A stretch of DNA of 64,000 nt from Eledone cirrhosa (Eukaryota): the NCBI GenBank assembly GCA_964016885.1, contig OZ024742.1, positions 18,786,001 through 18,850,000 on the forward strand. Reading direction: 5' to 3'. Under the pieces are notes generated by a model. It worked only from the letters and a program-made list of their open reading frames with translations, ran no database searches and was not told the DNA's origin. Both the position numbers and the translations under genes were made by a program. Shown here piece by piece: positions 34,901-37,476 of this stretch; the stretch's first letter is position 1, and the number at the start of each line of letters is the position of its first letter.

Positions 34901-35392
34901 CCCCTTGAGGCTGCTACACCCCCCTCTATCGGGACATGCCCCTGCATAGTCCCAACGCGCATCTAGGATTCCATTCCAGTCCCCCACTAAAAGCAGGGAA
35001 CGCGACGTTCCTAGAAAAGTTTCCAGACGTTGGAAGAAGTCGGCTCTCTCCGCCCCGAAGGGAGCATAAAGACCGACCAGTCTGAAAGCCCCGCCTTCAC
35101 CACCTCCGACGTCCAGCACCAGTAATCGACCCCCCGGGTCCGAGTGAACAATCTGTACGTCGAGAGTCAGACGTTTATCCAGCAGTACGGCAACTCCCCC
35201 CCCGCCTCCGGGTTGACAGAGAGATGCGTGCATCTCAAAGTCATCGAAGGCGGGCGCCAGCTGTCTCACGCTGCTGATCCGACTCTCGCAAACAACCATC
35301 ACATCTATACTTTGTGACCTGAGGTCACTTAGAAGCTTTGCTTGCTTCCAAGCTGAGCTCAGGCCACGCGCGTTCAAACAGCCAACTCTCAA
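31964..35392 (-). CDS. LINE ORF2: APE endonuclease + reverse transcriptase + C-terminal zinc finger (no ATG start)
   Basis: LNARGL, CE, LYAP, GDWN, YLDRF, SDH (APE). KSPGLDG, FRPITLLN, DQSKAFDRVDH, RQGCPLS, YADDV (RT). CPRC..H..HC. Confidence 0.95.
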   Translation of the reverse strand: MRVGCLNARGLSSAWKQAKLLSDLRSQSIDVMVVCESRISSVRQLAPAFDDFEMHASLCQPGGGGGVAVLLDKRLTLDVQIVHSDPGGRLLVLDVGGGEGGAFRLVGLYAPFGAERADFFQRLETFLGTSRSLLLVGDWNGILDARWDYAGACPDRGGCSSLKGLLDRFDLVDRFRLDCPTAPTWTWANRSGQSRSYLDRFLVRSKDRDVFSCPELIMVGYSDHKLVTCVVNLDRTHRQGPGYWKMNLSLPTKKDYRNRISSLVKMRLTGAIVNSRWWISLKREIRVSSIGYSKELAANRNRRERELTDKLEEAIRSGDVARVLATRTALSQFFDAKHEGCVVRSKIRALGNEGTKAVSWARVTEAKSGIKSTIRSLRDQDGRVILEPERMCETFQRHFARLFGGGGGPDGDVDFGPYLDGLPRLSSGEAECCEEPITATEIGEALSQCSRRKSPGLDGLPYELYLAMPVLFSELLEAVYCNWQQNGRIPCSVTKGVVTLVRKDESKGDDLSNFRPITLLNAELQILAKVLAKRLALVVGGLVGDAQTCAIPSRSIHDNLHLMRYIIERVGYEPGFGGALINLDQSKAFDRVDHGYLDAVLAAAGFGPVFRGWISAMHSGNIYSRIKVNGYLSEPFQITRSIRQGCPLSSLLYVLTLEPLLRKLELLRGIPLEPGLHKAVSAYADDVTVMVADASEIGAIATLLEEYERLTGAKLNQDKSVGLQLGTWRGKPMPLDGVVGRWTEGPVKLLGVWFGPDLQVEKNWGEVTSRVFALTQKWAKCKLSLKGRAEVTNAYIASVIYYRLTVVPCPKEKLTIMERMLFQFLWKKRPPMVRRSICCQHPSKGGLGMPWLLMRRHALRLRHLQVFLNGQPVWAPFVRRAFPQLVSLTELQSWVKQRPRKLGNWHTECAQALTAIWQADPTVSGESTSTFYRGLVASRGDDTLGESLGMEEDELASLFGRTFGPGPMDNFQRSLAWQCYRGALPVREKLYRHGRPGRDPAKKICPRCVRDEETVAHALVHCPGVADLWGYVERLLSRVAPIRLTAESVVNIKPPPPFRNEAEAVFLCVIAMMKEVVWWTRLKGLRSGDFLSGHHLVYFFRYHFGRRIRMEREVLGPRQFYERWVKEARMARVNGPSLYIVL

Positions 35393-35397
35393 TTGAT

Positions 35398-37233
35398 CTA
35401 TTTTGGTGTTGAAAGTGAAGAAAGAAAAGCACTTACCTCTCCGGGTTGCGTAATTTCCATGGCATCAGGTGTGTTGGGTGGAGGGATGTTTTGTGGTGGT
35501 GTGGGGGTACACGTGTGTGGTGGGGTTGGGGTATTTGGAGTTGTGTCAGGGAGAGGGGCGGTTATGGGGAAATCTTTCAAGAGGACGCGATTCAACGGTT
35601 TTAAACAGGGGGGGCTCACGTCCCGTCTAAATTGTTCTTTTAAGGAACGATAAAGGTCCAGAGGGACCTTTATCATTTTTAAATGGGTGAAGTTCTCTGT
35701 TGAGATAAAGTTTGGCCCTTCGGTCTGCACCATAGGGTTATTGTTTATTAATTTAACCAGTTTTTTGTTTTCTTTATTTATATATGTGTATTGCAACGTC
35801 TTTTTTTGTGATGCTGTCAATGTTTCGGAGAGGGGAGGCGCAGATTTATTTTTGTTTGTTGAGGGTGGGGTGTTTTTGATTGGAGTTGGTGTTTGTGTGT
35901 GGGTTATTTGTGGTGTGCTGGGTGTGTGTTTTCTTTTTTTTCTTTTAACTTGTCTGAAGGCTTCTCCTCCTTCTTCTTCAGAAGTTGGGGGAAACTCTTC
36001 AGCGCTAGGTGGGAGGGACGTGTTGTGTGGTTGTTTTTTTTTTGCGGGAGGGGTAGATTTGTTACTGTTTTTTTTATTATTTGTTTGGAATGGGTTTTGT
36101 GGTGGTGGTGGTGGTAATGTTTGTGTCGTGCTTGTGGTTGGTAATGGTGGTGGTGATGTTTGTGTTGTGGTTGGTGGTGGTGATTTTTGTGTCGTGCTTG
36201 TGTTTGGTGCTGGTGGTGGTGATGTTTGTGTTGTGTTTGTGGTTGGTGGTGTCTGTATTTTGTTTGCTGTGTGTGGTATTAGTGTATTTTTGGAGGTGGG
36301 TGGTGCTGGTGTACTGTTTGTGGTGGGTGTGGGCAATAGTCCTTTTTGGGGGATACGTTTCGGGCAGTTAGCCTTAACGTGTCCCCTTTCCATGCATAAA
36401 TAGCATGCTGGTCTTCTCCCCTCTACAATTATGTCTATTGGGGTAAGGTCATCCAGCCAGATGCGATCCGGGATTTGTGCTATTCTTTCGGGCCTCATTT
36501 GGACTAGTATGTCGAGGCCCATTCCCAGGAACGCATCTCCAGTTGCCTTCCCCATTGACAGCATAGTGTCTTCGCCCATATCAATGAAGCCAGCAATAGC
36601 CCACCAGAAGTCCATTGTGGGCAGCATTGTTTTTACTTTTATTCTTTGTGTTCTTCTACCCATGTAGGAGGGATAGAAGCTATATGTTGTCGACGAGAGT
36701 GGGCTTAGGGAAAGCTGAACCGCCGTTTCTTTGTCTCTTGTTAGGACCGAAATGCTGCCATAGAGTCGGTCCTTTCGTATGAAGAGAATATTCTTCATAT
36801 AGTCTTTTAGGACCAACTCTATTTCCATTTGGCTGGGCTGTGCTGGCTTTCTTGACTGGTTTAGTATAGTTCTGTATATAACTGTGTTTTCTGCTCTGGC
36901 TTTCTTGAATTCTGGGGGGGAGTTAATGGAAAACATTCCATTTTCCCCCAAAACAATATGTTTCTTTGCTTCGGCCAGTTTTTCTCTGGCGGCAGTTAGG
37001 TCAATTGGTGTGTATGTAATGGATTGCTTTGTTTTCTGGGCGAAAGTTGCCCTGTCGTTATTTGTATTATTTTCTGTTTGTTTGTTTTCTGTTTGCTCAT
37101 TTTCCTTAACATTTGTTTTTTCATTTTGTTTGTTTGTTTCAATGTCTAATTTTGTTGTAATTATTTTTTGTTCTTCAGACTTGGGGGGCGTGGCAGAGCT
37201 AATGGCAGACATGTCTGCCATCTTTTCCGCCAT
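35398..37233 (-). CDS. LINE ORF1 (gag-like nucleic-acid-binding protein)
   Basis: First ATG at 37233 (MAEKMADM). CCHC knuckle CYLCMERGHVKANC, Pro/Thr-rich linker, basic FRQVKRKKRK. Confidence 0.88.
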   Translation of the reverse strand: MAEKMADMSAISSATPPKSEEQKIITTKLDIETNKQNEKTNVKENEQTENKQTENNTNNDRATFAQKTKQSITYTPIDLTAAREKLAEAKKHIVLGENGMFSINSPPEFKKARAENTVIYRTILNQSRKPAQPSQMEIELVLKDYMKNILFIRKDRLYGSISVLTRDKETAVQLSLSPLSSTTYSFYPSYMGRRTQRIKVKTMLPTMDFWWAIAGFIDMGEDTMLSMGKATGDAFLGMGLDILVQMRPERIAQIPDRIWLDDLTPIDIIVEGRRPACYLCMERGHVKANCPKRIPQKGLLPTPTTNSTPAPPTSKNTLIPHTANKIQTPPTTNTTQTSPPPAPNTSTTQKSPPPTTTQTSPPPLPTTSTTQTLPPPPPQNPFQTNNKKNSNKSTPPAKKKQPHNTSLPPSAEEFPPTSEEEGGEAFRQVKRKKRKHTPSTPQITHTQTPTPIKNTPPSTNKNKSAPPLSETLTASQKKTLQYTYINKENKKLVKLINNNPMVQTEGPNFISTENFTHLKMIKVPLDLYRSLKEQFRRDVSPPCLKPLNRVLLKDFPITAPLPDTTPNTPTPPHTCTPTPPQNIPPPNTPDAMEITQPGEVSAFLSSLSTPK

Positions 37234-37476
37234 GCTGCCAAGAAAGAAATTTTTCGGCAAAAATAGATATTTATTTTACCCCCTAAAAAGGGGGTAAATG
37301 CAAAAATGTTTCCCTAAATAACAGGGGTTAGTGTTCCAAATGTGTTGCACTAAAAAATTTATCCGGTACTTACAATAGTAAGGGTAAATCCCGATGGAAT
37401 AGCGGAGCCGATGCGAAGCGTGTCTTACTCTATCAAGATAGGTAGATAGATAGGTAGATAGATAGGGAGATAGATA

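Follow-up and report, generated by a model that had tools for sequence, protein, structure and literature searches.

How the second open reading frame (ORF2) of long interspersed nuclear elements (LINEs) is translated has been called an open question (PMC3894237, PMC11485995). ORF2 translation in L1 is AUG-independent (PMC11485995, PMC5009743), and stop-restart translation, which makes use of AUGA overlaps, tolerates altered start codons (PMC5972666). The microsatellite-targeting Tx1-clade LINEs Kibi and Koshi have two ORFs, an apurinic/apyrimidinic (AP) endonuclease, a reverse transcriptase and a zinc domain, and insert into simple repeats (PMC4494074), and recently active L1-Tx1 families have been catalogued in an octopus genome, with no mention of introns in the available excerpt (PMC13282606). 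Here, we describe a LINE with the layout of Kibi and Koshi in a 64,000-nucleotide (nt) stretch of the Eledone cirrhosa genome (assembly GCA_964016885.1, contig OZ024742.1, positions 18,786,001 to 18,850,000), referred to in full as the window. It differs from Kibi and Koshi in that its target is (TATC)n and its ORF2 lacks an AUG; the conserved donor motif and the predicted long-range pairing, or clamp, considered below were not found described for either element in the literature searched.

An initial annotation of the window had proposed that this LINE makes separate ORF1 and ORF2 mRNAs by alternative splicing. The analysis presented here gives no support to splicing as the source of an ORF2 mRNA, and the part that is worth testing is an AUA start codon together with a co-varying clamp. 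The reading that we prefer, with a probability of about 0.55, is that ORF2 protein would be made from an unspliced two-gene RNA, ribosomes that terminate at the UAG of ORF1 reinitiating at the AUA overlapping it, with the junction of the two ORFs clamped to the end of ORF2.

A LINE family with ATA in place of the ORF2 start codon

The element and its coding features are as follows (positions are those of the window).

31736..37436, minus strand: full-length L1-group (Tx1-like) LINE of 5.7 kb, flanked by (TATC)n runs
35398..37233, minus strand: ORF1, 611 aa, with a weak zinc knuckle and a Pro/Thr-rich C-terminal half, ending at a TAG that overlaps ATA
31964..35401, minus strand: ORF2, 1145 codons counted from ATA, with AP endonuclease, reverse transcriptase and zinc-binding domain
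35399..35401, minus strand: ATA, likely start of ORF2, in A-TAG overlap with the ORF1 stop and at the site of the relatives' ATG
35314..35367, minus strand: predicted stem-loop (z -2.93), beginning 34 nt past the ATA
31741..31746, minus strand: terminal AATAAA, preceding the (TATC)n tail

On the minus strand, the 5' boundary lies at 37436 and the 3' boundary at about 31736. As in other L1-group elements, ORF2 includes an N-terminal AP endonuclease, a reverse transcriptase and a C-terminal zinc-binding domain (PF03372, PF00078 and PF13966), among solved structures its best match is human L1 ORF2p (E 1.5e-49), and there is a separate upstream ORF1, in which the zinc knuckle is below the cut-off (zf-CCHC, E 0.018). 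The preference for a repeat target seen in the Tx1 clade is also found, as the 5' end is identical and immediately follows TATC at 30 of 30 loci, the window included. The label Tx1-like is provisional, being derived from the order of the domains and the choice of target; the tree described below contains only unnamed entries. Protein searches returned only distant unnamed relatives, two of which (P0001 and P0002) start with a Met no more than one residue from the ATA position.

Searches of the 3 Gb genome with exact 21–22-mers, a procedure that misses diverged copies, found at least 458 matches to the leader, at least 643 to the ORF1–ORF2 junction and at least 671 to the tail, and all 40 of the junction matches scored were 100 % identical. 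Hence, the family is both young and large. The same three counts imply that the share of full-length copies is unusually high for a LINE. Of 150 scored matches, 129 sit in open frames of at least 1124 aa.

According to the initial annotation, ORF2 has no Met ahead of its first catalytic motif, and this was borne out, as the first in-frame ATG (Met35, at 35299) is downstream of the NARGL motif. The codon homologous to the relatives' start had, however, been misplaced; it is the ATA at 35401 and not a TTG at 35392. In an ungapped alignment, which leaves out L237 (TTG, a single copy) and L188, this ATA is opposite ATG in 15 of 15 relatives. Across the genome, the same context contains ATA in 643 cases and ATG, ATC or ATT in none, and subfamilies that are 96–97 % identical also carry ATA. 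The absence of ATG is therefore a trait of the whole family and not damage to the copy in the window. The ATA has A at -3 and G at +4.

Related families, with ORF2 proteins 59–84 % identical, were fetched from the same genome and placed in a quick version of a phylogenetic tree. The window's family is nested among families with ATG, and its sister (L099) has 966 pattern matches, with ATG in all 100 of the matches listed. On this tree, and because the ATA family is nested in this way, ATA is derived from ATG. The position of the ORF1 stop has also changed: a 14-nt deletion just upstream of a donor-like motif at the end of ORF1 shifted the ORF1 frame, and this moved the stop from the donor onto the TAG that overlaps the ATA. 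The resulting A-TAG arrangement (35401–35398) is one in which the likely downstream start adjoins the upstream stop, as in coupled stop-restart systems. The predicted stem-loop at 35314..35367 is retained in a consensus fold with 4 of 14 pairs changed on both sides, a pattern that is confounded by coding constraint.

Selection on ORF2 was examined using 20 ATA copies, namely the window and 19 of 20 fetched copies; L121 was dropped as it matches only over its 5' 1.1 kb. Changes shared by at least two copies comprise 33 silent and 26 replacing changes (omega 0.25), compared to 80 silent and 178 replacing among private changes (omega 0.70; Fisher p 0.0005 for shared versus private), and the values for the endonuclease part are 0.20 and 0.68, respectively. 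ORF2 has thus stayed under purifying selection among copies with ATA. A low omega for shared changes is what master copies relying on ORF2p of their own should show, and ORF2 is therefore likely to be translated in cis, from the family's own copies. Cis preference is established for L1. For ORF1, the shared-change omega is 0.25 over codons 1–300.

These data bear on the suggestion that no full-length ORF2p is made, with the family either mobilised by its ATG sister families or starting ORF2 at Met35. An abundant sister family with ATG and a similar tail is available to provide help in trans. However, the purifying selection detected among the ATA copies extends to the endonuclease, target choice is intact, and a start at Met35 would delete the N of NARGL, and with it a residue aligned with the first motif of the L1 ORF2p endonuclease. 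We consider this explanation very unlikely.

Two observations on individual copies were also made. Near 35205, some copies are 3 or 6 nt longer across the first 100 ORF2 codons with the frame intact, probably reflecting in-frame growth of a G-run. In L121, the first 1.1 kb is 95 % identical to the window's family and, after a gap, ORF2 is just 76 % identical, raising the possibility of a hybrid or a nested insertion.

Complementarity between the ORF junction and the ORF2 end

Three further features are found at the two ends of ORF2.

35431..35436, minus strand: donor motif GAG|GTAAGT, a likely U1 site, GTAGGT in older subfamilies
35392..35450, minus strand: predicted 5' strand of the clamp, with the donor, a pyrimidine-rich spacer, the ORF1 stop and the ORF2 start
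31911..31975, minus strand: predicted 3' strand of the clamp, with the last ORF2 codons, the ORF2 stop and the purine-rich start of the 3' untranslated region (UTR)

The junction contains a pyrimidine tract that is complementary to the region around the ORF2 stop, 3.4 kb away. Pairing of 35450–35392 with 31911–31975 is predicted at -57.0 kcal/mol, a value reached by 0 of 300 shuffles, and the tail is the best partner for the junction along the whole LINE, the next best reaching -38.3. When junctions and tails of different families were compared (a matrix that leaves out L232, L235, L237 and L238, where the ORF2 end was not found), for 14 of 14 junctions the strongest pairing was with a tail from the same clade and, when each lineage was represented once, 7 of 7 preferred their own tail (permutation 1/5040), compared to 1–3 of 7 in ten shifted controls. 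The junction and the tail complement each other, with sequences that co-vary from lineage to lineage. The predicted helix extends over donor, spacer and start codon and sets the ORF2 stop opposite the ORF2 start, and the clamp wins in 15 of 15 short-context folds and in 12 of 15 medium-context folds. The lineage-specific helix also supplies ready compensatory pairs. We infer that the pyrimidine tract would act as a pairing strand and not as a splice-acceptor tract.

A 3'-UTR-only remnant of a related and abundant family (1700 candidates, approximately 92 % identity) lies directly upstream of the LINE at 37480–37730 on the minus strand. It starts a few bases from its family's ORF2 stop, within what would be the clamp region.

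The donor at the end of ORF1 is the best on the sense strand of the LINE, and 0 of 1000 shuffles of 60 nt reach its score under a generic donor matrix. It is top or tied top among sense donors in 8 of 10 family representatives, the two exceptions being single copies with point changes, and is thus conserved across families that are 59–84 % identical, at the end of the structural gene as in the retrotransposon EVD. In most relatives the donor contains the ORF1 stop, which varies between TAA, TGA and TAG while the flanking G and GT are constant, and the donor persists in the window's family where it is no longer the stop. A fixed donor among co-varying neighbours points to a partner outside the LINE, most simply U1, and the motif is likely to be a U1 docking site without a regular acceptor. 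A coarse test using 100-nt identity windows gave no sign of a hybrid origin at the donor for the window's family.

The ORF2 stop resembles an acceptor (CTG TAG|GT, flanked in most of 40 tails by a pyrimidine run on its 5' side and purines on its 3' side), which leads to a different proposal, that the donor is joined to the ORF2 stop (35436>31964), removing ORF2 to give an ORF1-only mRNA, much as a Gag-only RNA is produced by Ty1/copia elements. The strength and conservation of the donor favour it, in the window's family ORF1 would end three codons on, and an RNA lacking ORF2 need not leave copies. Against this, the ORF2 of a 67 %-identical family ends in TAA, in several families the stop does not track the junction, and no spliced copy was found in the window's family, its sister or two other family groups (30 of 39 and 8 of 8 matches read). 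The clamp explains the pyrimidine tract and also the conserved TAG GT and purines at the ORF2 end, as these pair with the junction. We view such an mRNA as rather unlikely, and as a minor product it may coexist with unspliced RNA.

ORF2 is in the -1 frame relative to ORF1 and is open from 35464, and an ORF1–ORF2 fusion could in principle arise if ribosomes slipped by -1 on reaching the ORF1 stop (CCA AAA UAG), where the P-site lysine tRNA would re-pair one base back. The run of A residues preceding the stop arose in the window's family, with C or T at -1 in relatives. However, there is no canonical slippery heptamer, the conserved stem-loop begins 34 nt away, the stop falls exactly on the ancestral start codon, and the stop-driven shifts described in PMC5009743 are +1. 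The -1 base is unpaired in the clamp predicted for the family and hence free to drift. A slip of this kind seems unlikely.

Several points weigh against the preferred reading of restart at AUA beside a clamped junction. AUA is a weak start codon, and having ATA in place of ATG improves the duplex by just 1.3 kcal/mol. The selection test spans the whole of ORF2, and shared changes are too sparse in the 34 codons that precede the first Met for these to be assessed alone. A permutation value of 14/5040 was obtained with one of the ten shifted controls. Among the 15 medium-context folds, 2 lack the clamp and a third contains just 11 pairs of it, and the clamp is also absent from a wider cofold and from a 3,965-nt fold of the LINE, in wide folds competing with local hairpins that both strands can form. 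As to the donor, its scores come from a matrix that was not derived from the host, and four of the five AATAAA motifs in ORF1 lie 300–650 nt upstream of it and not downstream.

AATAAA is found once in the 5' UTR (at 37275, 98 nt past the first donor) and five times in the A-rich ORF1, between 36643 and 35749.

Splice-like motifs, a search for spliced copies and neighbouring repeats

The motifs on which the splicing proposal was built are all present on the minus strand where they had been placed, and include the following in the 5' UTR.

37368..37373, minus strand: donor-like GTAAGT, invariant in 20/20 copies
37275..37298, minus strand: perfect 10-bp hairpin; similar hairpins with changed sequence were seen by eye in relatives
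37235..37249, minus strand: pyrimidine tract and CAG, a possible acceptor, one base upstream of the ORF1 ATG

The initial annotation joined the leader donor at 37373 to the TAG at 35398 to form an ORF2 mRNA and to the AG at 37235 to form an ORF1 mRNA. The first junction is in frame as claimed, with a leader that lacks ATG, and the donor at 37373 and the TAG at 35398, which doubles as the ORF1 stop (35400–35398), are each invariant in 20 of 20 copies. A TAG is also found in the spacer of L092 and L233. However, splicing of this kind would remove the ATA and leave an RNA still without AUG. The motifs are also unevenly conserved: the donor at the end of ORF1 extends beyond the family, while an AG is found within the spacer in just 2 of 7 ATG-bearing lineages, being missing in the other 5 and at 29 of 30 sister-family loci, so that there is no conserved acceptor before ORF2. 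Judging from these comparisons, the AG at 35398 is present because ATG changed to ATA, and the supposed acceptor is a by-product of that change. The pyrimidine tract before it is otherwise explained by pairing in the clamp.

Inserted copies lacking an intron were sought, as the initial annotation had suggested, with patterns admitting any base except the intron's own, and none was found for any proposed junction, although exact patterns of this kind miss diverged copies. In genome pattern searches, there were 0 copies without the intron behind the leader compared to 458 intact, and 0 behind the donor at the end of ORF1 compared to 379 intact in the youngest subfamily. Patterns for the acceptor sides at 37235, 35398 and 31964 gave 1, 5 and 4 matches, respectively, all of them local substitutions and none spliced. 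The sister family likewise yielded no spliced copy. As a spliced ORF2 mRNA would encode its own reverse transcriptase and keep the tail, it should copy itself and its copies are expected; their absence weighs heavily against such an mRNA, and less so against an ORF1-only RNA. We regard the model with a spliced ORF2 mRNA as highly improbable.

The second junction, which would remove a 139-nt intron from the 5' UTR in part of the transcripts and improve ORF1 translation, is independent of how ORF2 is translated. The donor (ATT|GTAAGT at 37373), a branch-like CTAAC (37331–37327) and an acceptor-like TTTCTTTCTTGGCAG that ends at 37235, a single base short of the ORF1 ATG (37233), are all present, and two hairpins could shorten the distance from branch to AG. 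The AG at 37235 is retained in 19 of 20 copies, and the CAG before ORF1 is shared with the sister family, which has CTAACAG two bases upstream of its ATG. Yet the donor is modest (67 of 1000 shuffles reach its score, P 0.067), the corresponding motifs in relatives are weaker or similar (P <0.05 in 2 of 10 family representatives), and AG is absent before ORF1 in L094/L238, L104, L232 and L171. Splicing of the human L1 5' UTR does leave intron-less copies (PMC5860796), whereas here there were none beside the 458 intact leaders and none among 3 variant matches in the sister family. Thus, while its signals hold up in the family and its sister, this intron is possible but doubtful.

The two 5' UTR hairpins (37330–37275 and relatives) recur with differing sequence, and a branch-like YTRAC word is found at the base of the first hairpin in several families.

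Other arrangements were tried and rejected. Joining 35436 to 35398 deletes only 39 nt, ORF1 then ending three codons later with no fusion, and in the window's family none of the three nearest AGs would give an in-frame mini-intron linking ORF1 to ORF2. No good phase-1 donor that might use the TAG at 35398 is found in ORF1 (best score 1.5). L225, a candidate spliced copy, is actually a deletion at a short shared word, without AG. Co-variation of the ORF2 stop with donor phase around an ORF2-sized intron fails in several families.

Contigs assembled from four runs of unknown kind were compared to 31870–37050, a region that does not include the 5' UTR intron, and contig assembly drops rare forms. 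One X1 contig bridges 35216–35562 and one covers 31870–32332 without difference, and among the 15 joints listed of 93 there are no splice-type ends; nothing is concluded on splicing or expression. A contig from run X5 (organism B) joins 33151 to 36764, from late ORF2 to ORF1, with 8 extra letters, and represents an internally deleted copy and not a splice.

Among the fetched sequences, several families are arranged head to tail (L031–L060 and L091–L119), each inserted into the (TATC)n tail of another, and more distant families target (TTA)n rather than (TATC)n. A 2.1-kb (TA)n run (28982–31337) adjoins a 200-nt assembly gap approximately 400 nt beyond the tail of the LINE, and two satellite arrays with strong strand skew, having a 78-nt unit and a 29/58-nt unit, are found at 1–5212 and 54902–64000 of the window.

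Proposed mechanism and known systems

How the clamp and the donor might act together can be set out as a sequence of steps. U1 would bind the acceptor-less donor on the nascent RNA and guard against early polyadenylation. After transcription has reached the tail, the donor and the ORF2 stop with its likeness to an acceptor would both be buried in the clamp. ORF2 would thereby escape removal by splicing, leaving full-length RNA to be exported, translated and copied. In the cytoplasm, a ribosome finishing ORF1 at the UAG would restart at the overlapping AUA. That U1 and the clamp form a two-state switch of this kind, masking both ends of an ORF2-sized intron, with precise restart having let one family drop its AUG and only the full-length RNA making ORF2 protein, is a tentative extension that we hold to be appreciably less probable than restart at a clamped junction itself. 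In other systems, 5' splice sites protect early transcription (PMC12211998) and U1 blocks early termination at the donor of the retrotransposon EVD (PMC5580714). If this were true, a single element would tie together the processing of RNA, its export in unspliced form and restart. The family also provides a natural test of ORF2 translation, with >600 near-identical AUG-less copies and an ATG sister for comparison.

Neither a long-range clamp around ORF2 nor a conserved U1 site at the ORF1 stop of a LINE was found in the literature searched, which did not cover most subscription journals or Repbase. Spliced L1 copies (SpIREs) also derive from splice signals within a LINE, though those signals leave intron-less copies (PMC5860796) and none was found here. 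The Arabidopsis Ty1/copia element EVD, which produces shGAG RNA, likewise has a conserved donor ending its structural gene, where U1 can block early termination (PMC5580714); however, EVD is a long terminal repeat element with a short, proven intron, whereas the LINE in the window has no conserved nearby acceptor and no spliced RNA was seen. The tombusvirus polymerase is made by readthrough that depends on long-range pairing of approximately 3.5 kb from the ORF1 stop region to the 3' end (PMC3234231), but this is a plant virus using readthrough and not restart, and the pairing has been shown experimentally, so that for the LINE it is an analogy only.

Overlap of the stop with the likely start, ahead of a downstream structure that is here only predicted, recalls the UAAUG coupling of silkworm SART1 and the AUGA stop-restart of caliciviruses (PMC5972666, PMC3894237), while here the overlap is A-UAG, the likely start is a near-cognate codon, and the main predicted structure pairs across 3.4 kb. 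Human L1, where ORF2 is translated by termination and reinitiation (PMC11485995, PMC5009743, PMC5972666), resembles the LINE in the window in having an AUG-independent ORF2 start on a bicistronic, unspliced RNA, as proposed here. Though L1 has retained both an AUG and a 63-nt spacer, the family described here, with >600 copies, has an AUA that overlaps the ORF1 stop.

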